From Escherichia coli (lineage in GTDB: Bacteria > Pseudomonadota > Gammaproteobacteria > Enterobacterales > Enterobacteriaceae), in NCBI RefSeq assembly GCF_009931435.1, contig NZ_CP043414.1: a stretch of 64,000 nt of DNA. One strand, written 5' to 3'. The notes beneath the pieces were generated by a model. That model was not told the origin of the DNA. It worked only from the letters and a program-made list of their open reading frames with translations, and did no database searches. A program made the position numbers and the translations under genes. Within the stretch, counting starts at the first letter, position 1, and each line of letters begins with the position of its first letter. Positions 17,523 through 60,321 of the stretch are shown piece by piece.

Positions 17523-18707
17523 TTAATTCAATCGTTCAATCACCATCGCAATTCCTTGACCGCCGCCAATGCACAACGTTGCCAGACCCAGCGTTTTATC
17601 GCGTGCCTGCATTGCATGTAATAGTGTGACCAGAATACGCGCACCGCTGGCGCCGATAGGATGCCCCAGCGCGATGGCCCCGCCGTTGACATTCACTTTC
17701 TCAGGATCAAAGCCCAGTGTTTTCCCAACGGCAAGGAACTGCGCGGCAAATGCTTCATTGGCTTCGATAAGATCAATGTCTGCCAGCTGCAGCCCCGCCA
17801 GTTGTAACGCTTTTTGCGTGGCAGGTACTGGCCCCATACCCATCAATGCGGGGGGCACTCCACCGCTGGCATAACTTTTAATGCGAGCCAAGGGGGTAAG
17901 GCCTGCTGCCAGCGCCGTAGATTCTTCCATAATCACCAGAGCGGCAGCACCGTCGTTAATACCTGACGCGTTCCCGGCGGTGACAGTACCTGCTTTATCG
18001 AAGGCCGGACGCAATGCAGCCAGAGCTTCTGTAGTAGAATCTGGTTTCGGGAATTCGTCTTGACTGAAGACGAGGGTTTTCTTCCGGGTGACAACATTTA
18101 CCGGGACGATTTCGGCTGTAAAAGCACCGGACTCAATTGCGGCAGCCGCTTTACGCTGTGAATGTAGCGCCAGTTCATCCTGCATTTCGCGGGTAATCCC
18201 GTACTCCTTAGCCACGTTTTCGGCGGTAATTCCCATATGATAACCATGGGTGGCGCACATCAGGCCATCGCGCAGGATTACGTCATAAACCTGTCCGTCT
18301 CCCAGACGATAACCAGAGCGCGCTTTTGCATCGAGTAAGTAGGGCGCTAAACTCATATTTTCCATACCCCCCGCCACAATGCTCTGCGCCTGACCTGCCT
18401 GAATTGCCTGGGCGGCAAGCGCCACGCTTTTCAGACCCGAACCACACACTTTATTGACCGTGAATCCGCACACCGTTTCGGCCAGTCCGCTTTTTAACAA
18501 TGCCTGACGCGCCGGATTTTGCCCCAGCCCGGCTTGCAACACGTTACCCATAATCACTTCATCGATATGTTGTGAATCGATTTTTGCGCGTTCAATAGCG
18601 GCCTGAATTACTGTTGCTCCCAGATCGATGGCGCTGGTGGAGGCGAGTGAACCATTAAAACTACCGATGGCAGTACGTACCGCACTGACGATGACACAAT
18701 TTTTCAT
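17523..18707 (-). CDS. atoB: Acetyl-CoA acetyltransferase (thiolase II)
   Basis: 394-aa [20 protein letters not shown]...; thiolase catalytic-Cys region NKVCGSG; last gene of atoDAEB. Confidence 0.95.
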
Positions 18708-18737
18708 TTTATATTCCTTCTGTCTGTAAAGTTGCCG

Positions 18738-20060
18738 TCAGAACAGCGTTAAACCAATGACGAAAATGACGCCGGAGAAAAGCAGAGCAGTGATGCAATA
18801 GCCCATGATGTCGCGGACACCGAGTCCGGCGATTGCCAGTGCTGGCAGCGCCCAGAACGGTTGTGCCATGTTCATCCATTGCTCGCCGTAGGCGATCGCC
18901 ATTACCGATTTACCGAGATCGGCTCCCAGCGCCTGGGCTGCAGGTATCACGAAAGGTCCCTGAATAACCCAGTGACCGCCGCCAGACGGAACGGCGAAGT
19001 TAATCAGTGCAGAACTAAAGAAGGTCATTACCGGGAAGGTGTCTTTGTTCGCAACATTGATGAAGAATTCAGTAATGAACCCACCCAGACCGGAGTGCTC
19101 CATCATCAGTTGGATCCCGGCGTAGAAGGGGAATTGCACCAGAATACCGGCGGTACTGCGCGCAGCCGCGCTGATAGCACGCATATAAGCCATTGGCGTT
19201 TTATGTAGCAGCAGACCCGCAATCATAAACATCAGGTTGACGGTATTGATGGTGATGTTGAAGCCATGTTCGCTGAAGTACATCGCCAGGTAAGCGATAC
19301 CGAGTGCGCCGATGATCAACGTCAGGATGCGACTTTCCTCCAGTCGCTCGGATGGTGGGGCATCTTTCGGTAGCTGCTTCTGAAAATCAGCCTCTTCCAT
19401 GAGTAGTTTCGGATCGATACTCACCACGTCAGACGGTTTTGGCATCATCATGCGGGTAATAAATGGCATCACCACAATCAATGCCACAGTGATGAAAATG
19501 TTAAAACCACTGAACAGAGTATCGCCCACCGGGATAAGCCCGGCGATATGCTCAACCGGATTGCCCGGTGTGGCAGCCAACAGAGGCATTGAACCAGAGA
19601 AACCGCCACCCCAGGTAAGAAAACCAATGTAGGCGCAGGCAATGAGCAACGGATAATCAGAACCGGGTACTCGCCGGGCGACTTCACGGGCGAACATTGC
19701 TCCGACAACCAGACCAAATCCCCAGTTGATGACACAAGCGACTGAACCGAAGAAAGTGACCAGCATGACGCCCTGTACGGGCGTCTTTGCGGCGGAAGCG
19801 GCAGTACGCAGCAAGCTTTTCACCGGAGCAGAGCTGGCAAGGGCATGACCGGTAACGATGATAAGCGCCATCTGCATACCGAACGCCAGCAAGTTCCAGA
19901 AACCGTCCCCCCACATTTTCACCATGCTGATCGGCGTTTGTGGTGTTAACCAAAGCGCGATCACGAACGTTAGCAATGTCAGCAACATGGCAAAGATCAG
20001 TGGATCGGGAAGCCACCGGCTGACAAAACGCGTCATAAAACGCGAGATGCGACCAATCAT
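18738..20060 (-). CDS. atoE: Short-chain fatty acid transporter AtoE
   Basis: 440-aa polytopic membrane protein; position between atoA and atoB. Confidence 0.93.
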   Translation of the reverse strand: MIGRISRFMTRFVSRWLPDPLIFAMLLTLLTFVIALWLTPQTPISMVKMWGDGFWNLLAFGMQMALIIVTGHALASSAPVKSLLRTAASAAKTPVQGVMLVTFFGSVACVINWGFGLVVGAMFAREVARRVPGSDYPLLIACAYIGFLTWGGGFSGSMPLLAATPGNPVEHIAGLIPVGDTLFSGFNIFITVALIVVMPFITRMMMPKPSDVVSIDPKLLMEEADFQKQLPKDAPPSERLEESRILTLIIGALGIAYLAMYFSEHGFNITINTVNLMFMIAGLLLHKTPMAYMRAISAAARSTAGILVQFPFYAGIQLMMEHSGLGGFITEFFINVANKDTFPVMTFFSSALINFAVPSGGGHWVIQGPFVIPAAQALGADLGKSVMAIAYGEQWMNMAQPFWALPALAIAGLGVRDIMGYCITALLFSGVIFVIGLTLF

Positions 20061-20707
20061 AAATCACCCCGCTGCGTATTCAGATCGGCGGCGACTTCAA
20101 ACTGAGCTTCGGTTTTGGCACGCACGGTGGCTAAATCACACCCGTCGGCAATTTCGGTGAGCCACATTTTGCCGTCAATGAAACGAAAGACTGCCAGTTC
20201 AGTGACCAGCATATGCACCGCGTGTTGCGCAGTGAGCGGCATGGTGCAGCGGCGCAAAATTTTTGCTGAACCATCTTTGGCGCAATGTTCCATGGCGATG
20301 ATCACTTTGCGCGACCCGGTCACCAGATCCATCGCGCCACCCATACCGGGCACCATTTTTCCAGGCACTACCCAGTTCGCGAGGTTGGCTTCTTCGTCTA
20401 CCTGCAAACCACCGAGTACGCAGGCATCAATATGACCACCACGAATCAGCGCAAACGACATTGCGCTGTCGAACATCGCTGCGCCGGGTAAAATGCCGCA
20501 TGGTTGCCCGCCAGCGTTCACCAGATCTGGATGCGCTGTAGTGACTGGGCCTAAACCGAGGAAGCCATTTTCCGATTGCAGAGTGATATGAATATCCTCC
20601 GGTAAATAATTGGCGACCATTGTGGGTAAACCGATCCCTAAGTTAACGATGTCACCATCACGAAGCTCTTGCGCCACACGGCGCGCAATACGTTGTTTCG
20701 CATCCAT
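20057..20707 (-). CDS. atoA: Acetate CoA-transferase beta subunit
   Basis: 216-aa ORF; stop/start overlap with atoD and atoE. Confidence 0.95.
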   Translation of the reverse strand: MDAKQRIARRVAQELRDGDIVNLGIGLPTMVANYLPEDIHITLQSENGFLGLGPVTTAHPDLVNAGGQPCGILPGAAMFDSAMSFALIRGGHIDACVLGGLQVDEEANLANWVVPGKMVPGMGGAMDLVTGSRKVIIAMEHCAKDGSAKILRRCTMPLTAQHAVHMLVTELAVFRFIDGKMWLTEIADGCDLATVRAKTEAQFEVAADLNTQRGDL

Positions 20708-21369
20708 TATTTGCTCTCCTGTGAAACGATGATGTGGTCGATAACGGCACCAGGGGTGACAATATGGTCAGGTTGCAGTTCGCCGGTTTCGACCAGTTCA
20801 TCTGGCTCCACCAGCGTGATATCAGCCGCAAGGGCAATCAGGGGGTTAAAGTTGCGGGCGCTAAGTTGGTAGGTCAGGTTGCCAAGTGTGTCGCAACGAT
20901 GGGCGCGAATGAGCGCCAGGTCGGCGCGCAGTGGACGTTCAAGCAGCCAGGTTTTACCGTCGAGTGTCAGCGTCTGTTTGCCTTCCTCTACGACGGTGCC
21001 GACACCAGTTGGCGTGAGAAAACCACCAAGTCCAGCTCCACCACAGCGAATTTGCTCAATCAATGTACCTTGCGGTACGAGAACGACCTCCATTTCGCCA
21101 GAAATCATGCGCCGTCCGGTTTCCGGGTTGGTGCCGATATGTGAAGCAATTACTTTGCGGACTCGACCATTGACGATGAGCGGACCGATGCCGGTATCAA
21201 CAAACGCGGTATCATTGGCTATCAATGTCAGGTCGCGAACGCCAGATTCCAGTAATGCTTCCACCAGGCGGGATGGAGTGCCAATTCCCATAAATCCGCC
21301 CACCATGATGGTCATGCCGTCACGAAAGAAGCCGGAGGCGTCTTGTAATGTCATCAATTTTGTTTTCAT
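20707..21369 (-). CDS. atoD: Acetate CoA-transferase alpha subunit
   Basis: 220-aa [14 protein letters not shown]...; first gene of the operon downstream of a sigma54 promoter. Confidence 0.95.
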
Positions 21370-21414
21370 TATTTATCCCTCTTGCATACACCGTTGTGGG
21401 TACAGTCAGGGAAT

Positions 21415-21430
21415 AGCAAGGGGAGTGCCA
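21415..21430 (-). promoter_or_regulatory. Sigma54 (-24/-12) promoter of atoDAEB
   Basis: Minus-strand TGGCAC-tcccc-TTGCT, GG/GC spacing as in the RpoN consensus, about 45 bp upstream of the atoD ATG. Confidence 0.7.
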
Positions 21431-21512
21431 GAATGAAAATGTTTGATATTGTTTTTTAACTTATTGAATAGTAAAGAATAAATAAGGTGGGGATTAAGAG
21501 GTTGAATGAACG

Positions 21513-21553
21513 GCTATGCAGAAATTTGCGCACTGTGCAAATTTCTGCATAGC
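21513..21553. promoter_or_regulatory. AtoC enhancer site: 41-bp inverted repeat (17-bp arms) upstream of the sigma54 promoter
   Basis: gctatgcagaaatttgc-gcactgt-gcaaatttctgcatagc, perfect arms, about 100 bp upstream of the -24 element. Confidence 0.7.
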
Positions 21554-21564
21554 AAGTTTTGGCG

Positions 21565-22950
21565 TTATACATCCGCCGGATCGATACCGTATTCCTGGAG
21601 TTTATACATCAATGCACGGCGACTGATGCCCAGCATTAAAGCAGTGCGGGTTCGGTTTCCTTCTTGTTGTTCCAGCACTTCCATAATGATGCGTTTTTCG
21701 ACGCGTTTAATTTCCTCTTTTAAATTACGCTCACCGACAGGGGCTGTTTTTGCTTCACCAGCACTACAGACTGGCTGACGAATCTGCGGCGGAAGATCCT
21801 CAGAAAAAATGATCGGGCCTGAATTCATCACGACGGCGCGTTCAATAACGTTGGAAAGCTCTCGAATATTTCCCGGCCATGACCATGCGGTAAGCAGTGA
21901 CATTGCCATCGGATCGATGTCGATAATATCGCGCTGATTCTCACTACTGAATTTTTGCAAAAAGTGATTAGCTAACAGGGAAATATCTTCCCGGCGATCG
22001 CGCAGAGGCGGCAGTATTAAATGAATAACGTTAAGGCGATAAAAGAGATCTTCACGGAAGGTGCCTTCTTTCACCATTGCCTGCAAGTCGCGGTTGGTGG
22101 CAGCAATGATGCGGATATCAACTTTTATGGTCTGATGACCGCCAATCCGTTCAAATTCCCGTTCCTGCAGAATGCGTAGTAATTTGGCTTGCAGTACCAG
22201 CGGCATTTCACCAATTTCGTCAAGGAGCAGAGTACCTTCGTTGGCACGTTCAAATAATCCCTGACGCAGGGTTTGTGCACCAGTAAATGCGCCTTTTTCA
22301 TGACCAAACAGTTCACTTTCGAGCAACGATTCCGGCAGCGCCGCGCAGTTGACTTTAATAAACGGCCCCTTGGCCCGCCGCGAATTGTAGTGAATCGCTC
22401 TGGCAATCAACTCTTTCCCGGTGCCGCTTTCACCGCTAATCAAGACGCTGGCCTGAGAAAGGGCAATTTTGGCGGTGTCTTTGCAGATGTCCATCATTGC
22501 CGGGCTGTTAGTGAGAATGTGCCCCCATTGCCAACTGGTGCTTAGTGCCTGGTGCAGATGACGGATCTCTTTTTTCATTGACTGGAGTTGTAAAGCGCGC
22601 TGAACGATTAAATTCAACTCATCGAGATCAAACGGTTTGATGACATAGTCAAAGGCTCCGCAGCGTAGTGCTTCGACGGCGGTTTCCACTTCAGCATAGG
22701 CCGTCATCAGAATAACGGGTGTCCGTGTCTCATGGCTGCGCATCTCCTTGAGTGCCTTGATGCCGTCCATCTCTGGCATGCGGATATCCATCAACACCAC
22801 GTCAGGGTGAATATCGGCAAACAGGTGTAATGCTGTGCGCCCGTTGTTCGCACAATGTGTTTCGAATCCTTGTAGTGCAAAAGCGGTGCTCAGCATACGG
22901 CGAACATTATCTTCATCATCCACAATAAGGATGCGATTAATAGCAGTCAT
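21565..22950 (-). CDS. atoC: Sigma54-dependent response regulator AtoC
   Basis: 461-aa ORF; receiver domain (IVDDEDNVR..D..MPEMDG), AAA+ Walker A GESGTGKE, GAFTGA motif, C-terminal HTH. Confidence 0.95.
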   Translation of the reverse strand: MTAINRILIVDDEDNVRRMLSTAFALQGFETHCANNGRTALHLFADIHPDVVLMDIRMPEMDGIKALKEMRSHETRTPVILMTAYAEVETAVEALRCGAFDYVIKPFDLDELNLIVQRALQLQSMKKEIRHLHQALSTSWQWGHILTNSPAMMDICKDTAKIALSQASVLISGESGTGKELIARAIHYNSRRAKGPFIKVNCAALPESLLESELFGHEKGAFTGAQTLRQGLFERANEGTLLLDEIGEMPLVLQAKLLRILQEREFERIGGHQTIKVDIRIIAATNRDLQAMVKEGTFREDLFYRLNVIHLILPPLRDRREDISLLANHFLQKFSSENQRDIIDIDPMAMSLLTAWSWPGNIRELSNVIERAVVMNSGPIIFSEDLPPQIRQPVCSAGEAKTAPVGERNLKEEIKRVEKRIIMEVLEQQEGNRTRTALMLGISRRALMYKLQEYGIDPADV

Positions 22951-24773
22951 ACAGTCTGATTTCCCTGCGGGTTGATCGGTAAAATAAGCGTGAAGGTTGC
23001 GCCGTAGCCCGGCAAACTGGCGACGCGAATATCACCCTGATGGGCATTAATGATGCGTTGACTTAACGCCAGACCAAGCCCGGTTCCTGAGGCTTTGGTA
23101 GTGAAAAAGGGATCGAAGATCTTTTTTTGCAGCGAGAGATCAATGCCACTGCCGTTGTCCTCTATCGAAATGGCCTGTTGTGAGTCGCTATACTGCCAGG
23201 TTCGAATGCGAATTTTCCCTCGTGCACTGATAGCCTGGACGGCATTGATCAGGATATTCAGTAGTACCTGTTTGAGCAGTTCACGATCGGCGTTAATCGG
23301 GCTTAATTCATTATCCAGTTCGCTTATGAAGTCGACTCGCGCTTGTACGCCGGCGGTTTGTACCAGTACCAGAGTTTCTTCAACCAATGCATTGAGGCTG
23401 ACTTGTTGCCATTGACTGTGGCGTGGGCGTGAAAATTCGAGCAATTGCTGAATAACTTTGTTAATTGAATCGATTTCTTTGAGTACTACGGACAGATATT
23501 CCTGATGTATTGGGTCACTGGTTTGTTGGCGCAAGATCTGTACATAACCACGAATAGCCGTTAACGGATTACGTACTTCATGCGCCACGCCAGCCATCAG
23601 CTCACCCAGTGTGGCGAGGCGTTCAGCTTGCGCCATGCGGCGCTGGGTTTCTTTGCGGGCAGTTAAATCAGAGAAAATCACCAAAGCACCTATCATTTCA
23701 CCATGCGTATTATGAATACGACTGGTAGTGACACTGAGTTCAATGGTGCGCTCACGGCCTGGAAAACTGATCTCCAGCGCCACATGTTCGGTACCATGTT
23801 CCAGCGTATCCAGTACTGGACTGTAGAACGGAGTATTGTCGAACAACATGGAGTAAGGCTGCCCTACCAGTTCATGACGTTGATAGCCAGTGATGACTTC
23901 TGCTGCCGGGTTCATGGTGGTTACATCACCCTGGCGGTCAATGGCAATGACGCCATCGGCAGCGTTTTCAATAATCAGATCGTTAAGTGTTCGCGTTTCA
24001 CGCAGTGCCTGGGCGAGGTTGTTGACACTCTGACTAATTTGCCCCATTTCACCGGGCAATTGTGGTAATCGAGTGGGAATATTTTGCGCCAGAGTCGCGA
24101 GACCATCGGTGATGATATCTATATTGGCGCTCAGGCGACGGGAGAAAAGGACAATCAACAGCAGGCTTATCAGCAAACCGGCGGTGAGCACAATGATAAT
24201 CCTCACATCCATTTTCCAGGCCTGGCGGCGAATATCTTCGGTTAATTCATTGGCCCAGATATAACCGAGGATTTCACCATTACGCTCAATGGGGATCATT
24301 GAATTCAAAATATCGCCGCGCACCTGCCTGCCTGAATAAATCAAAGGAGTATTTGTACGCATGACTTCGCGACCAGGGTGATCTGCGGCAATAGTAACGC
24401 CCACATTATTCTGATACAGCGCTGAAGGCGCGTAAGTGATTATCGCATCCAGTGTTTTGTTGTAATAACCAGCACCTATGCCAGGAAAGGCGTGAGTGAT
24501 ATTTTCAGTAATGGGAGCAAGTTCTGCATTCAGTGCGTGGATTCGCTCCTCACGTGGTAAGTCGTTGTAGAGATCGTAGCGATCGCCTAGCGCCTGATTA
24601 AGCAGGTTGACCACGGCAGAAAGTTTTTTCTCTTTTTCAGATAAGACTGCTGAACGTCCTTCCGTTTCTACGATATAACCAATAGTAAGCGTTGGGACAA
24701 TGACCATCAGGATTGCCATCAGGATCATTTGATTGCGTAAGCGGCGTGGATAAATCCACTTCATATAATGCAT
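22947..24773 (-). CDS. atoS: Sensor histidine kinase AtoS
   Basis: Start MHYMKWIYPRR (608 aa) inside the 612-aa ORF; H-box HEVRNPL; stop overlaps the atoC start. Confidence 0.93.
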   Translation of the reverse strand: MHYMKWIYPRRLRNQMILMAILMVIVPTLTIGYIVETEGRSAVLSEKEKKLSAVVNLLNQALGDRYDLYNDLPREERIHALNAELAPITENITHAFPGIGAGYYNKTLDAIITYAPSALYQNNVGVTIAADHPGREVMRTNTPLIYSGRQVRGDILNSMIPIERNGEILGYIWANELTEDIRRQAWKMDVRIIIVLTAGLLISLLLIVLFSRRLSANIDIITDGLATLAQNIPTRLPQLPGEMGQISQSVNNLAQALRETRTLNDLIIENAADGVIAIDRQGDVTTMNPAAEVITGYQRHELVGQPYSMLFDNTPFYSPVLDTLEHGTEHVALEISFPGRERTIELSVTTSRIHNTHGEMIGALVIFSDLTARKETQRRMAQAERLATLGELMAGVAHEVRNPLTAIRGYVQILRQQTSDPIHQEYLSVVLKEIDSINKVIQQLLEFSRPRHSQWQQVSLNALVEETLVLVQTAGVQARVDFISELDNELSPINADRELLKQVLLNILINAVQAISARGKIRIRTWQYSDSQQAISIEDNGSGIDLSLQKKIFDPFFTTKASGTGLGLALSQRIINAHQGDIRVASLPGYGATFTLILPINPQGNQTV

Positions 24774-24939
24774 GCTGAATCCCACTAGTCTTGTCCGGTA
24801 TATGACGATTATCAGAGGTTAAGGTGATGATTTCTCGGCGGTGTATCATATTCCAGAGAAGAGAGAACATTGCGGTAACACGCTTTTACCGCTACCTTAA
24901 CCACACTCCATCGGTCACCTGAGGCGGAGCTTCGCCCCT

Positions 24940-27789: not shown

Positions 27790-27981
<192 letters not shown>

Positions 27982-39714: not shown

Positions 39715-39952
39715 CCACATCCGGCATGTTATGCCGGATGTGGCGTATGCTGATAAGACGCGCCAGCGTCGCATCAGTCAACCGGCTTGGGCGTTAGATG
39801 TCGGATGCGGCGTGACCGCCTTATCCGACCTACGGGGTGGAGCACTTCACAGCGGTGTAGGCCTGATAAGACGCGCCAGCGTCGCATCAGTCAACCGGCT
39901 TGGGCGTTAGATGTCGGATGCGGCGTGACCGCCTTATCCGACCTACGGGGTG
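39715..39952. repeat. REP/BIME cluster between mqo and eco: 29-bp perfect hairpin then two tandem ~90-bp copies (113-bp period)
   Basis: ccacatccggcat-gtt-atgccggatgtgg; then tgataagacgcgccagcgtcgcatcagtcaaccggcttgggcgttagatgtcggatgcggcgtgaccgccttatccgacctacggggtg at 39751 and again at 39864. Confidence 0.85.
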
Positions 39953-39969
39953 CCACACTTCACGGCAGT

Positions 39970-40458
39970 TTAGCGGACTACCGCGTTGTCAATTTTCTCT
40001 TCCGCCTTCCAGATGCGGTATTTCACATCTACATTGTCTGGCGTATACACCACGATCGGCAGCTTGCTGTTGTAACGCAGCATTCCAGCATCGCCCAGAT
40101 ACGCGGTGACAAATTTCTTCTCTTTCTTGCCATCCGGGCAGGCCATCATCGTGGAAACCGGCGAGCTAACTTTATCAAAGACGTAATAATCATAGCCCCA
40201 GCCTTCCAGCGTTTTGCTTTCCAGCTTCCCGCCGAGACGATGCAAATTGCAATCGACTTCCAGCGTCTGACCGATTAACAGTTCTACTTTCAGGGTAGAT
40301 TCATCTTCTTGCGGGGTTAACTGAATCACCTGGCGCTTCATGCCTTTTTCAGCTTGTGGATAAGGCGCGATTTTTTCCAGTGGCTGGACGCTCTCTGCCG
40401 CCCAGGCGGAAGTGGTGGCGAAAGCGGCAAACAATACTGCAGGTAGAATGGTCTTCAT
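39970..40458 (-). CDS. eco: Ecotin, periplasmic serine protease inhibitor
   Basis: Start [20 protein letters not shown] (162 aa) inside the 169-aa ORF. Confidence 0.93.
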
Positions 40459-53005: not shown

Positions 53006-53064
53006 GAACAAGCCCGATGGTGATGCCATCGGGCCAGACTGATGGCAAAGTGCGCTTTGTTTAT

Positions 53065-53163
53065 GCCAGATGCGGCGTAAACGCCTTATTCAGCCTACAA
53101 AATCGTGCGAACTCAATACATTGCTCGATCCGCGTAGGCCTGATAAGCGTAGCGCATCAGGCA
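53065..53163. repeat. REP pair (BIME) downstream of ccmH
   Basis: gccagatgcggcgtaaacgccttattcagcctac and inverted gtaggcctgataagcgtagcgcatcaggc. Confidence 0.8.
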
Positions 53164-53186: not shown

Positions 53187-53219
53187 AGCCCGAGGGTAAA
53201 TCCATCGGGCTATTTTTTT
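53187..53219 (+). terminator. Probable rho-independent terminator closing the nap-ccm operon
   Basis: Stem agcccga/tcgggct followed by a T-run; overlaps the narP stop codon. Confidence 0.55.
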
Positions 53220-53865
53220 ATTGTGCCCCACGTTGTTGCAGGAACAGAATGGTGGCCGCCACGCGTGAGCGGACATTGAGTTTACGCAGCAGATTGCGAA
53301 TGTGTACTTTTACTGTCTGCTCGGAAATATTCAACACCGAGGCAATCTGTTTATTTGACAGTCCCTGTGCCAGCTCGTGCAGAACATCCAGCTCGCGCTC
53401 CGTCAGCACGCTGAAGGGATCTTCTTCCGCGCCAAACATTTCACGTTCACGTAAGTACTGATTGACGCGTTCGCTAAAGACTTTGCTGCCTTTCGCTCCG
53501 GCACGAATCGCTTCCAACAACACTTCCGGATCGCTGTCTTTCAACAGATAACCGTCTGCGCCTGCGTCTATCAGCGCAAACACATCGCTGGAGGCATCTG
53601 ATACGGTCAGGATAATAATTTGCGCGGTAACGCCATCCCTGCGCAAGGCATTGAGGGTATCCAGGCCACTCATACCTTTCATATTGAGATCCAGCAAGAT
53701 CACGTCGATATCCAGTCTATTCGCCAGATCGATAGCACTCGCGCCGTCGCCCGCTTCGGCGACCACTTCAAAGCCAGGATCAAGCTCCAGTAACTGACGA
53801 ACACCGCGTCGCATAAGTGGATGATCATCCACAATCATCACCTGAAAAGGCGTTGCTTCAGGCAT
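53218..53865 (-). CDS. narP: Nitrate/nitrite response regulator NarP
   Basis: Start MPEATPFQVMIVDDHP (215 aa) inside the 225-aa ORF; receiver plus LuxR-type HTH. Confidence 0.95.
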   Translation of the reverse strand: MPEATPFQVMIVDDHPLMRRGVRQLLELDPGFEVVAEAGDGASAIDLANRLDIDVILLDLNMKGMSGLDTLNALRRDGVTAQIIILTVSDASSDVFALIDAGADGYLLKDSDPEVLLEAIRAGAKGSKVFSERVNQYLREREMFGAEEDPFSVLTERELDVLHELAQGLSNKQIASVLNISEQTVKVHIRNLLRKLNVRSRVAATILFLQQRGAQ

Positions 53866-54184
53866 AGTAGTCTCCTGAGGTTTTATTAGAATCATTATGT
53901 TTGAGCGTAGCGTTGGAAACGCTACCAGGCGCGTGAATGTTACCCCATTTTATGTATGGACATGTAGTGAAAAGTACAGCTCAGTAGTTCACCCTCGCAT
54001 CATTTTCATTATAAATATGGAATTTTGCATCAACTTCCCATCAAGAAAAACAACTAAAAAATCAATCACAATACATGTGCATTTCTTTAAACAGTTTTTA
54101 AAAACTGACTCCGGGTATGGAGCTATGGGTATTTTCAGTACCCAATGCTTTTGACAGCAATTAATTTCATAGGATGAAAGCTCA

Positions 54185-56779
54185 ATGCATCAATCTGGTT
54201 CTGTTTCTCTTTGTCGTTCCGCAATATCTGTTCTGGTGGCTACAGCGTTATATTCACCCATAGCATTGGCATCAACTGTTGAGTATGGTGAGACAGTTGA
54301 TGGTGTTGTCCTGGAAAAAGATATCCAGCTGGTTTATGGGACCGCCAATAATACGAAAATCAATCCTGGCGGAGAACAGCATATAAAAGAATTTGGTGTA
54401 AGTAATAATACTGAAATTAACGGAGGGTATCAGTACATTGAAATGAATGGCACCGCAGAATACTCAGTATTAAATGACGGTTATCAAATTGTTCAAATGG
54501 GTGGCGCGGCAAACCAGACTACCCTCAATAATGGTGTGCTACAGGTTTATGGCGCAGCGAATGATACTACCATTAAAGGCGGGCGCTTAATTATTGAAAA
54601 AGATGGCATTGCCATCTTCGCCGTTATCGAAAAGGGAGGACTACTGGAGGTTAAAGATGGCGGATTGGCATTTGCGGTAGATCAAAAAGCAGGCGGTGCG
54701 ATTAAAACAACCACGCGGGCCATGGAGGTATTCGGAACAAACCGTCTCGGTCAGTTTGATATCAAAGATGGGGTTGCTAACAATATGCTGTTGGAAAACG
54801 GCGGAAGTTTGCGGGTTGAAGAGAATGACTTCGCTTATAATACCACTGTGGATAGTGGTGGTTTACTGGAGGTTATGGATGGCGGGACTGCAACTGGCGT
54901 TGACAAAAAAGCAGGCGGAAAATTAATTGTTTCAACGAATGCGCTGGAAGTGAGTGGTACAAACAGTAAAGGCCAATTTAGCATAAAAGATGGCGTGTCT
55001 AAAAATTATGAACTGGATGATGGTTCCGGGCTAATTGTTATGGAGGGCACTCAGGCAATTGACACTATCCTTGATGAGCATGCAACCATGCAATCGTTGG
55101 GAAGAGATACTGGTACGAGAGTGCAGGCACATGCAGTTTATGATCTTGGTCGGTCAGTGCAGAATGGAAGCATAAAATATTCCTCAAATGCCATATCTGA
55201 AAATATGGTTATCGATAATGGTCGCGCTAATGTCTGGACTGGCACAATGGTTAACGTAACAGTCAGAGGAAATGAGGGCATTATTGATGCAATGGCGCTA
55301 GAATTAAATTTTTATACACCGGCTACATTTTTAGGTGACTTGGTGGTTTCTGATGGTGCATCTTTAAGAACGCATGGCGCAGTGGATACCAGTAAAGCAG
55401 ATGTTTCTATCGAAGAGAGTTTTTGGACTATTATTGCCGATATCAATAATATAAACCAAAACACCCGTCTCAATTTAGCAAACCTGGTGATGTCAGACGG
55501 AACTGTCGTTATGATGGCTGAGCCAGTGACTCGTTCATCTGTGACGGCAAGTGCGGAAAATTTCACTACGTTGACCACCAATACCCTATCGGGAAACGGC
55601 AATTTTTATATGCGTACCGATATGGCTAATCATCAGAGCGATCAGCTCAACGTGACCGGTCAGGCAACAGGTGATTTCAAAATATTTGTGACGGACACGG
55701 GGGCCAGCCCGGCAGCAGGTGATAGCCTTACACTGGTAACAACGGGCGGCGGTGATGCTGCATTTACCTTGGGCAATGCCGGAGGCGTTGTTGATATCGG
55801 TACGTATGAATATACCTTGCTGGATAATGGCAACCATAGCTGGAGTCTGGCAGAGAATCGCGCGCAAATTACCCCTTCAACCACTGATGTGCTGAATATG
55901 GCGGCAGCGCAACCGCTGGTATTTGATGCAGAACTGGACACCGTGCGTGAGCGTCTTGGTAGCGTAAAAGGCGTTAATTACGATACGGCGATGTGGAGTT
56001 CGGCAATTAACACCCGCAACAACGTAACCACTGATGCGGGAGCTGGCTTTGAGCAAACATTGACGGGGCTGACGCTCGGTATCGATAGCCGTTTCTCCCG
56101 TGAAGAAAGCAGCACAATTCGTGGCTTATTCTTTGGTTACTCTCATTCTGATATTGGTTTTGATCGCGGCGGTAAAGGTAATATCGATAGCTATACTCTG
56201 GGTGCTTATGCCGGTTGGGAGCATCAAAACGGTGCCTATGTTGACGGGGTGGTGAAAGTTGACCGTTTTGCCAACACCATCCATGGCAAGATGAGTAATG
56301 GGGCAACAGCGTTTGGCGATTACAATAGTAACGGCGCGGGTGCTCATGTCGAGAGCGGGTTCCGTTGGGGGGAGGGGCTGTGGAATGTAAGGCCTTATCT
56401 GTCCTTTACCGGCTTTACCACTGATGGTCAGGACTATACGTTATCAAACGGCATGCACGCGGATGTGGGAAATACCCGCATATTACGCGCTGAAGCGGGA
56501 ACGGCGGTAAGCTATCACATGGACCTGCAAAACGGTACGACGCTGGAACCCTGGCTGAAAGCCGCCGTGCGTCAGGAATACGCCGATTCTAACCAAGTGA
56601 AAGTTAATGACGACGGCAAATTTAATAATGACGTGGCTGGAACCCGTGGCGTTTATCAGGCTGGGATAAGGTCATCGTTTACCCCGACGTTAAGCGGTCA
56701 TTTGTCTGTCAGCTATGGCAATGGCGCGGGGGTAGAATCACCGTGGAATACCCAGGCGGGTGTGGTCTGGACGTTCTGA
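54185..56779 (+). CDS. yejO: Autotransporter YejO (passenger with repeated beta-helix motifs, C-terminal beta-barrel ending in F); intact here
   Basis: 864-aa uninterrupted ORF; signal-like N-terminus; C-terminus ...GVVWTF. Confidence 0.88.
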   Translation: MHQSGSVSLCRSAISVLVATALYSPIALASTVEYGETVDGVVLEKDIQLVYGTANNTKINPGGEQHIKEFGVSNNTEINGGYQYIEMNGTAEYSVLNDGYQIVQMGGAANQTTLNNGVLQVYGAANDTTIKGGRLIIEKDGIAIFAVIEKGGLLEVKDGGLAFAVDQKAGGAIKTTTRAMEVFGTNRLGQFDIKDGVANNMLLENGGSLRVEENDFAYNTTVDSGGLLEVMDGGTATGVDKKAGGKLIVSTNALEVSGTNSKGQFSIKDGVSKNYELDDGSGLIVMEGTQAIDTILDEHATMQSLGRDTGTRVQAHAVYDLGRSVQNGSIKYSSNAISENMVIDNGRANVWTGTMVNVTVRGNEGIIDAMALELNFYTPATFLGDLVVSDGASLRTHGAVDTSKADVSIEESFWTIIADINNINQNTRLNLANLVMSDGTVVMMAEPVTRSSVTASAENFTTLTTNTLSGNGNFYMRTDMANHQSDQLNVTGQATGDFKIFVTDTGASPAAGDSLTLVTTGGGDAAFTLGNAGGVVDIGTYEYTLLDNGNHSWSLAENRAQITPSTTDVLNMAAAQPLVFDAELDTVRERLGSVKGVNYDTAMWSSAINTRNNVTTDAGAGFEQTLTGLTLGIDSRFSREESSTIRGLFFGYSHSDIGFDRGGKGNIDSYTLGAYAGWEHQNGAYVDGVVKVDRFANTIHGKMSNGATAFGDYNSNGAGAHVESGFRWGEGLWNVRPYLSFTGFTTDGQDYTLSNGMHADVGNTRILRAEAGTAVSYHMDLQNGTTLEPWLKAAVRQEYADSNQVKVNDDGKFNNDVAGTRGVYQAGIRSSFTPTLSGHLSVSYGNGAGVESPWNTQAGVVWTF

Positions 56780-56840
56780 TAACAGAAAATAAACAGGCCG
56801 TAATGTGTCGCGGTCTGTTTATCAAATTAATCGCAGATAT

Positions 56841-56872
56841 AAAAAAACCAACCACAATAGGTTGGTTTTCTT
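56841..56872. terminator. Bidirectional terminator between yejO and proL
   Basis: A7 run, stem ccaacc/ggttgg, T-run. Confidence 0.65.
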
Positions 56873-56880
56873 GGGATTTT

Positions 56881-56957
56881 TGGTCGGCACGAGAGGATTT
56901 GAACCTCCGACCCCCGACACCCCATGACGGTGCGCTACCAGGCTGCGCTACGTGCCG
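56881..56957 (-). tRNA. proL: tRNA-Pro (anticodon GGG)
   Basis: Minus strand reads CGGCACGTAGCGCAGCCTGGTAGCGCACCGTCATGGGGTGTCGGGGGTCGGAGGTTCAAATCCTCTCGTGCCGACCA: 7-bp acceptor stem, T-loop TTCAAAT, anticodon loop with GGG, encoded CCA. Confidence 0.92.
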
Positions 56958-57031
56958 ACTCGTGGCTGCTAATACTACCGTTTTCCACAACGAATGCAAG
57001 TAAGATATTTCGCTAACTGATTTATAATTAA

Positions 57032-58792
57032 TCAGTTAGCGATAAAACGCTTCTCGTCTGTCAGCACCTGCAATAACAAACTTAACTGTGGTTTTTCATC
57101 TTTCACTCTTTCACCACGTAAGTTGTACGTGCGGTATTTACCGTTATTGTTCAGCACTAACGTCATTTTCGGGGTGGTAATTGCCAGCGTATCGTTATCC
57201 GCAGCCGTAACCCAGTAATGACGGCGTTGGGGGTTGAACAAATCCTGACCTTGTGAATATTCGCTGGCAGGTGTGCTGACATGTAGCAGGCGTTGCATCA
57301 GTGTCGTCATCAGATCGGTATGATCGGTCAGGGCATTAATACGCTGCGCCGGTGTGCCGGGCCAGTGAATCACTAATGGCACCTGAAGATGACCGTGGGA
57401 CCAGTCAAAGGTTTCTTCCCCTTCGTTCAGCGGAATACCCCGACCGGCAGTGATAATCACTACCGTATTGACCAGTTTGCCGGAATCACGCAGCGCATTT
57501 AGCACGCGGTTGATCTGGTCATCAACATTGCCTGCCGCCCGGCTATATTTCCGTGCAAATGCCAGCTGATTGCTGTCGTCAATGTTAGTGCCATTGAAAG
57601 ACACCCACGAGAACCAGCGGTTATCTTCTTGTGCGTAGCGGCCCAGCCAGTTGATCCACTGCGTGGCGGTCTGCTCGTCGGATTGGGTACGTACGCTCGG
57701 CATCGAGAAATCTGACAACAATGCCTGGCGATACAGCGGGCTGGTAAAGCCATCTGATGAGAATAACCCCAGCTGATAGCCTTGCTGATTAAGCGCAGTA
57801 ATTAACGCCGCAGGCGTACGGGTCGACAGAATGCCGTCCATATAGCTTGGCGAGATGCCATAGAACAGGCCAAAGATGCCGTTGTCTGTAGTGTTGCCGG
57901 AGCTCATATGGCGCGTGAACGAAATATTTTGCTCAGCAAAACCTGCCAGCGCAGGCATCTGCTTCTCGAAGCGTGAGTAGTTCAGGCCATCGACAGTAAT
58001 CAACAGCACATTCTGCCCGGTGCCCATATCGCGATAGCGCAGTTCGCTTAACGGATACTGAACGGAAACAGCGTCTGGGTTACCTTGCTCAATGAGACGG
58101 CGTTGATACTCTTGTGCATCAAGCAAACCATGCTTCTCAAGAAAACGTCGTGCCGTCATCGGGTACGAAAGCGGCAGGTTAGCGCGCTGCATGGTGATCG
58201 GGCGATAGAAGTTGGCATCGGCCCAGATATACACCACATGCGAGGCAATAAAAGCGATAAATAAGAATGCGGCCAGCGGGCGCACGAAGCGCCGACGACG
58301 CGTCAGGCTGCGTAGCTTTTGCCAGCTCCACGTCGCAAACACCAGTTCAAGCAATAAAATAACCGGCACGCTAATGAACATCAGCTGCCAGTCGCGCGCC
58401 ATCTCATTTTCGTCTGGGTTGATAACCAACTGCCAGACGATGGGATTAAGATGGAGATGGAAACGAGTAAAGACTTCGCTATCGATCAGTAATAGCGTCA
58501 TTCCCGCCGTTGCTAAAATGACGGACAAAAACCTCATCAGCCTCTGGGAGCCGACGATAAAAGTCAGCGGGAAGAGGATCAGCAAGTAGGTGGCGAACAC
58601 CAGGAAGCTGAAATGGCCGATAATGCTTACGTAGGAATAAATGCGACCAGCAAGCGTTGTCGGCCAGTCGGCGATAAACAGGTAACGGCTGCCAATGACG
58701 AGCGAAAGCAGAATATTGAACAGTGCAAACCAGTGCCCCCAACTGACCATCTGAGAGACTTTTTCACGGTAGCGCTGACGATGAGTTACCAT
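57032..58792 (-). CDS. yejM: Inner-membrane protein YejM (LapC), sulfatase-like periplasmic domain
   Basis: 586-aa ORF MVTHRQRYREK...; five N-terminal TM helices. Confidence 0.95.
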   Translation of the reverse strand: MVTHRQRYREKVSQMVSWGHWFALFNILLSLVIGSRYLFIADWPTTLAGRIYSYVSIIGHFSFLVFATYLLILFPLTFIVGSQRLMRFLSVILATAGMTLLLIDSEVFTRFHLHLNPIVWQLVINPDENEMARDWQLMFISVPVILLLELVFATWSWQKLRSLTRRRRFVRPLAAFLFIAFIASHVVYIWADANFYRPITMQRANLPLSYPMTARRFLEKHGLLDAQEYQRRLIEQGNPDAVSVQYPLSELRYRDMGTGQNVLLITVDGLNYSRFEKQMPALAGFAEQNISFTRHMSSGNTTDNGIFGLFYGISPSYMDGILSTRTPAALITALNQQGYQLGLFSSDGFTSPLYRQALLSDFSMPSVRTQSDEQTATQWINWLGRYAQEDNRWFSWVSFNGTNIDDSNQLAFARKYSRAAGNVDDQINRVLNALRDSGKLVNTVVIITAGRGIPLNEGEETFDWSHGHLQVPLVIHWPGTPAQRINALTDHTDLMTTLMQRLLHVSTPASEYSQGQDLFNPQRRHYWVTAADNDTLAITTPKMTLVLNNNGKYRTYNLRGERVKDEKPQLSLLLQVLTDEKRFIAN

Positions 58793-60228: not shown

Positions 60229-60247
60229 TCGGTTTGGTGTTATGAAT

Positions 60248-60281
60248 GCCAGATGCGGCGTGAACGCCTTATCTGGCCTAC
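60248..60281. repeat. Single REP element downstream of yejK
   Basis: gccagatgcggcgtgaacgccttatctggcctac. Confidence 0.75.
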
Positions 60282-60321
60282 AAAAAATAGCAATACCGTA
60301 ATCAGGCATAATTTGCAGATA

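Follow-up and report, generated by a model that had tools for sequence, protein, structure and literature searches.

Chromosomal proL between yejO and yejM in Escherichia coli, with no sign of an integrated element

tRNA genes are common integration sites, and the proline tRNA gene proL is placed beside yejO, a gene whose integrity had been described as variable among strains. This setting raises the question of whether proL carries an integrated element in the 64-kb stretch of E. coli DNA analyzed here (64,000 nt; the window). ARAGORN found exactly one tRNA in the window, a tRNA-Pro with the anticodon GGG at position 35. The same 77 nt (positions 56881-56957, minus strand, CCA end encoded) scored 54.9 bits against Rfam RF00005, above the gathering score of 29. 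No RNA family besides tRNA was significant in Rfam between 56700 and 57120, and weak matches to HPnc0260, rnk_pseudo, and SpF41 in the gap around the tRNA fell far under their gathering scores and were rejected.

The gap in question (56780-57031, 252 bp) is the exact space between the open reading frames of yejO and yejM. On one side lies yejM (pbgA/lapC; 57032-58792, minus strand), which encodes a 586-aa protein with the Pfam domains DUF3413 and Sulfatase, and on the other lies yejO (54185-56779, plus strand), an intact gene for an 864-aa autotransporter with AIDA, Pertactin, and Autotransporter beta-domain matches. The PGAP annotation of NZ_AP027764.1, the closest complete genome, has yejO, tRNA-Pro, and yejM at matching positions, offset by 50,000 bases. 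The first-pass annotation had named this gene proL (tRNA-Pro) between yejO and yejM, and ARAGORN, Rfam, the open reading frames, Pfam, and the PGAP annotation of the relative all agree with that assignment. The 5' end of proL is 74 bp past the yejM stop codon, and both genes are on the minus strand. The 77 nt of proL show no difference from the annotated tRNA-Pro of five E. coli loci and are identical in the representatives of 118 Enterobacterales species, in 117 of which yejM precedes the tRNA. Gene order, orientation, and the tRNA itself are also as in E. coli K-12, and the terminator region of K-12 MG1655 is 93.8% identical to the window over 175 bp. In contrast to K-12-type strains, which have IS5 within yejO, the window has an intact yejO (864 aa). 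The described variability of yejO is real: strains differ by IS5 or IS621 insertions, internal stops, or deletions in the gene.

A sigma-70 promoter for proL can be predicted from the sequence on the minus strand (56972-56999), with a -35 box TTGCAT (56999-56994), a 16-nt spacer, and a -10 box TAGTAT (56977-56972). The columns of both boxes are invariant or nearly so in an alignment of 111 Enterobacterales species. A constitutive yejM>proL promoter, TTGCAA-16-TAGTAT, has been listed by genomic SELEX (PMC3946193), and this K-12 promoter and that of the window have the architecture TTGCA(A/T)-16-TAGTAT in common. Downstream of the tRNA, RNA folding predicts an intrinsic terminator for proL at 56841-56872 (minus strand), a hairpin of the form A-tract/CCAACC-loop-GGTTGG/T-tract with a folding energy of -16.5 kcal/mol (z = -4.6) and a U7 run. 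As folded, this predicted hairpin is symmetric enough for both directions and thus of the bidirectional type, in line with the earlier description of the tRNA as flanked by a bidirectional terminator and the yejM stop. A second predicted hairpin, with a 13-bp stem (56789-56822, plus strand; -18.6 kcal/mol, z = -4.4), begins 9 nt past the yejO stop codon and would terminate yejO; the 101 bp from the tRNA to yejO hold these two hairpins only. The proL promoter and the two hairpins all escaped a simple consensus scan of 56600-57200, the promoter because only 8 of 12 positions match; the predictions are based instead on folding, conservation, and the literature, from which we infer the activity of the proL promoter and terminator.

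An integrated element at a tRNA gene can be recognized by a second copy of the tRNA 3' end, and the first-pass annotation, which had reported no such duplication, proposed a search for a direct repeat of the last 15-20 nt of proL. Run over the 64-kb window with both mismatches and indels, this search found a single copy. The last 23 nt of proL at up to 3 mismatches matched the tRNA itself alone, the last 15 nt at up to 2 mismatches had no match besides the tRNA, and 3'-end 20-, 25-, and 30-mers allowing 4-7 edits, indels included, again matched the tRNA alone. When the 15-mer was searched at up to 3 edits, the window gave 10 matches versus 8-14 in shuffled sequences, which is the chance level, and the nine near-matches outside the tRNA, located in nap, ada, and other housekeeping DNA, were rejected as chance. 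The window accordingly has no direct repeat of the tRNA 3' end that brackets foreign DNA.

The earlier statement that no integrase is present was upheld as well. Searches of the 64-kb window by tblastn with three proL-associated integrases gave only E values of at least 0.58, and no tyrosine integrase gene is present in the window within a few hundred bp of the proL 3' end. Comparison with the collinear annotated relative, supplemented by Pfam analysis of the two non-collinear stretches, accounts for the gene content of the window as housekeeping throughout and revealed no transposase or unaccounted integrase in it.

The flank of the tRNA was compared with other strains, as had been proposed, by using as an empty-site probe the 175 bp that comprise both terminators and the tRNA. 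This probe is unbroken in 4,940 of 5,426 complete E. coli genomes (91%), and therefore the flank seen in the window is the majority, native one; its segment 56786-56880 joins the tRNA in all of these 4,940 genomes, so that no strain-specific DNA abuts the proL 3' end in the window. Other strains do carry elements here. With an occupied-site probe of 1.7 kb from ATCC 25922 (integrase, tRNA, and the start of yejM), matched over at least 80% of its length, we found 439 genomes (8.1%), including Nissle 1917 and ATCC 25922, in which a P4-type integrase gene lies ∼200 bp from proL. Altogether proL is occupied in ∼9% of complete E. coli genomes, which makes it a genuine hot spot and a case of the general rule about tRNA genes from which the first-pass annotation had started.

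The integrases associated with proL have the domains Arm-DNA-bind_3, Phage_int_M, and Phage_integrase and are P4-type tyrosine recombinases. The elements that they head measure ∼8.4-11.5 kb, are flanked by a repeat of TGGTCGGCACGAGAG, and encode an AlpA-type excisionase, Icd-like and DUF4222 proteins, a primase or RepA helicase, and SSB, as well as major head and head-decoration proteins and a small terminase. The elements with a P4-type integrase are phage satellites of the PICI kind. When the empty site was aligned (BLAST, MAFFT) with the proximal and the distal junctions of four loci that carry elements (L001-L004), the shared core was (T)TTGGTCGGCACGAGAG. The corresponding unoccupied attB core in the window, TGGTCGGCACGAGAG on the plus strand, is the last 15 nt of the tRNA (56881-56895, minus strand), and identity runs 3-4 nt further, to ∼56878. 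Distal att copies often have 2-4-nt deletions, because of which a fuzzy regular expression missed them in these four loci. The junction alignment further shows that the native proL terminator hairpin remains at the distal junction once an element has integrated.

A longer attB of 46 nt (56881-56926, minus strand) is defined by a lambdoid prophage in one strain, E. coli 167, whose distal junction repeats these 46 nt. Decayed elements occur too, as strain E3 has a 1.4-kb remnant of a proL element with an integrase fragment. In the window, the 15-nt and 46-nt cores each occur once, inside the intact tRNA. The core used by the satellites of Nissle 1917, ATCC 25922, UTAK-12, and F637 is thus intact (56881-56895), and the window is their empty counterpart, without the integrase, AlpA, primase, capsid module, and repeated att that those satellites have. 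Because the site is used elsewhere and a single intact core is present here, the window holds an unoccupied attB, which would presumably be competent for integration. Literature searches combining proL with yejO, or proL with PICI, returned nothing specific.

Two further observations concern mobile DNA related to this site. In satellites of the F637/E3 type (L001, 32200-32292; L002, 8190-8281), a terminator-like hairpin of their own, AAAAAGCCCGCTA...TAGCGGGCTTTTTT, stands directly downstream of the rebuilt tRNA in place of the native proL terminator. Separately, the 44.6-kb plasmid NZ_CP148393.1 (L126) is a circular, lambdoid-phage-like replicon with tail fibre, Lom, ParA, and integrase genes; its positions 6001-6092 hold 92 bp that are 85% identical to the proL 3' half and terminator region and are probably an attP for proL. 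The integrase of this plasmid is only ∼22% identical to that of the strain 167 prophage.

Use of the site extends beyond E. coli. Homologues of the P4-type integrase lie 178-287 bp after an identical proL in ∼20 other Enterobacterales species, among them E. albertii and members of Citrobacter, Enterobacter, Kluyvera, Pectobacterium, Brenneria, and Erwinia. The island SPI-12 of Salmonella carries phage-remnant and effector genes. It is 6-15 kb in size and sits next to proL (PMC7143636, a review). Based on these ∼20 species and on SPI-12, proL is an established and widely used integration site.

One of the earlier claims did not hold. No abrupt composition change had been seen on either side of the tRNA, but the GC content falls from ∼0.52 to 0.36-0.44 between 53850 and ∼55500, over the yejO upstream region and the passenger domain. 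This fall coincides with a polymorphism in which a segment is present or absent depending on the lineage. Two divergent Escherichia lineages, whose flanks are ∼92% identical to the window, have ∼26 bp in place of window positions 53974-56831, which delimits a cassette of 2,858 bp (plus strand) consisting of an upstream region, yejO, and the predicted yejO terminator; the latter hairpin therefore has no counterpart in these two lineages. Four Citrobacter species also lack yejO, with boundaries at about 53903-56828, and yejO is absent from the five Citrobacter representatives in which narP is complete or nearly so downstream of proL. In yejO-less loci narP, which in the window lies at 53218-53865 (minus strand; Pfam Response_reg and GerE), follows proL directly, by 184-212 bp according to tblastn positions. 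Because the cassette is absent from these genomes and its flanks are conserved, proL-narP is the ancestral order, and yejO was inserted into this junction. The low GC content and the polymorphism give this flank a history of acquisition, and with a low-GC, lineage-specific insertion so near the tRNA the neighborhood is not compositionally featureless.

SPI-12, as horizontally acquired DNA immediately downstream of proL, can be compared with the yejO cassette, which fills the proL-narP slot in E. coli. The cassette differs from SPI-12 in that it contains a single 2.9-kb autotransporter gene without mobility genes and has its boundary outside the tRNA. It is conceivable that yejO was delivered by a tRNA-targeting element at proL that has since lost its integrase and att repeat, leaving a fixed islet. 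In favor of such an origin are the absence of the cassette from two Escherichia lineages and from Citrobacter, where narP comes 184-212 bp after proL; the GC content of 0.36-0.44 in its first ∼1.5 kb versus ∼0.52-0.55 in the flanks; the occupation of the same slot by SPI-12 in Salmonella (PMC7143636); and the existence of decayed proL elements such as the E3 remnant. The structure of the cassette argues against it. On its tRNA side the cassette stops at 56831/56832, with 49 bp between it and the tRNA end, and neither the proL terminator nor the att core is part of it; no degenerate att copy was found near the narP-side boundary; and neither an integrase, whole or as a fragment, nor a transposase was found within the cassette. 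Terminal repeats at the cassette boundaries were absent from the sequences read and from the 20 largest of at least 60 repeat families. Moreover, autotransporter passenger domains commonly have a low GC content however they were acquired. We therefore regard delivery by a proL element as unlikely and read the cassette as an old acquisition that was either not att-mediated or is fully eroded. Were yejO such a relic after all, the "empty" proL site would not be pristine and would have a parallel in the SPI-12 of the Salmonella slot.

A very different possibility, that a large element occupies proL with its far end and integrase beyond the window, has nothing positive in its favor except that the 56.9 kb downstream of the tRNA 3' end are finite, and we consider it extremely improbable since integrase-mediated insertion would put element DNA against the att core, the abutting 95 bp through yejO-narP-ccm-nap follow the standard chromosomal order, and the integrase lies ∼200 bp from the tRNA in occupied genomes. 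Equally negligible is the idea that the tRNA is not the native proL but came with a mobile element, either as a carried copy or by reconstruction: after an insertion, the 3' part of the tRNA does come from the integrating element, but all 77 nt match proL in all compared genomes, the upstream promoter, yejM linkage, and downstream terminator are native, and occupied strains have a different, element-derived sequence next to the tRNA.

We conclude, with very little doubt, that the feature in the window is the chromosomal proL in its native, unoccupied state. The first-pass annotation saw no sign of an integrated element, and the single att copy, the lack of an integrase in the window, and the native flank support that statement with high confidence. 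As the conserved chromosomal flank abuts the tRNA 3' end, occupation of proL by an element can be excluded irrespective of the sequence outside the window, and an integrase elsewhere in the source genome would not change the state of the proL site.

These data are consistent with the following working of the site. A sigma-70 promoter belonging to proL, TTGCAT-16-TAGTAT, which closely follows the yejM stop, would drive transcription of the gene on the minus strand, and the transcripts would end at the A/T-flanked hairpin located 9-40 bp beyond CCA. For tyrosine integrases, the gene offers an attB in its last 15 nt, or in 46 nt for the second class of elements, and in other strains these enzymes insert phage satellites or lambdoid prophages at proL. 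Each integration rebuilds the tRNA, and a partial copy is left where the element ends on its far side. No such integration has taken place in the window, given one att copy, no integrase, and a native flank.

The biology of an empty proL site is already known, and an ordinary tRNA gene in its usual flank is of little importance in itself. The window does provide a clean unoccupied attB reference for the satellites and prophages found at proL in ∼9% of complete E. coli genomes, and this sequence helps define element boundaries and could serve in integration assays. The comparison also documents yejO as an insertion into the ancestral proL-narP junction.

A perfect palindrome with 13-bp arms (TCGCTAACTGATT / AATCAGTTAGCGA) spans the yejM TGA stop (57032-57034) at 57010-57042, just upstream of the proL -35 box, and folds at -20.9 kcal/mol (z = -5.0). 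By a per-sequence arm search, perfect arms of at least 7 bp occur at the yejM stop in 57 of 111 Enterobacterales species versus 2 of 111 shuffled sequences. The arms vary by clade, with GCTAACTGATT in Escherichia, Citrobacter, and Salmonella, CTGATTGATT in Klebsiella, and ACTGC in Pectobacterium. RNAalifold found no consensus structure for this palindrome in the upstream alignment of 111 species because a 4-nt indel shifts the register. The palindrome is not followed by a canonical U-run. Its center, GATTAATTATAAATC, resembles the Fis consensus and precedes the likely start of proL by ∼61 bp. The palindrome could be a yejLM terminator, a processing site, or an upstream activator site.

By sequence identity, the window comes from an E. 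coli lineage that is somewhat divergent. None of the complete RefSeq E. coli genomes matches the window exactly, and the closest, NZ_AP027764.1 (strain 2017-02-2CC), is 98.1-99.1% identical. Ordinary E. coli genomes are ∼98.3% identical to the window on yejM-radD and only ∼95-96% around yejO. The window is collinear with NZ_AP027764.1 at 98.1-98.6% identity, with 91.7% over positions 1-1562, and the exceptions to collinearity are the rest of the yfaL autotransporter gene (1563-4520), the ato operon, and an IS621 in the relative alone. The window retains an intact gene for a 1,254-aa yfaL-type autotransporter (1563-4520) and a full ato operon (atoSC-atoDAEB, 17450-24860), both lost or truncated in the closest genome, and it is without the IS621 that the latter has near eco. 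REP/BIME-type repeat clusters (Rfam naRNA4) occur at 27794-27981, 39750-39973, 53063-53102, and 60246-60285; the one at 39750-39973 is a tandem pair of 111-113 bp, and single units follow ccmH and yejK.
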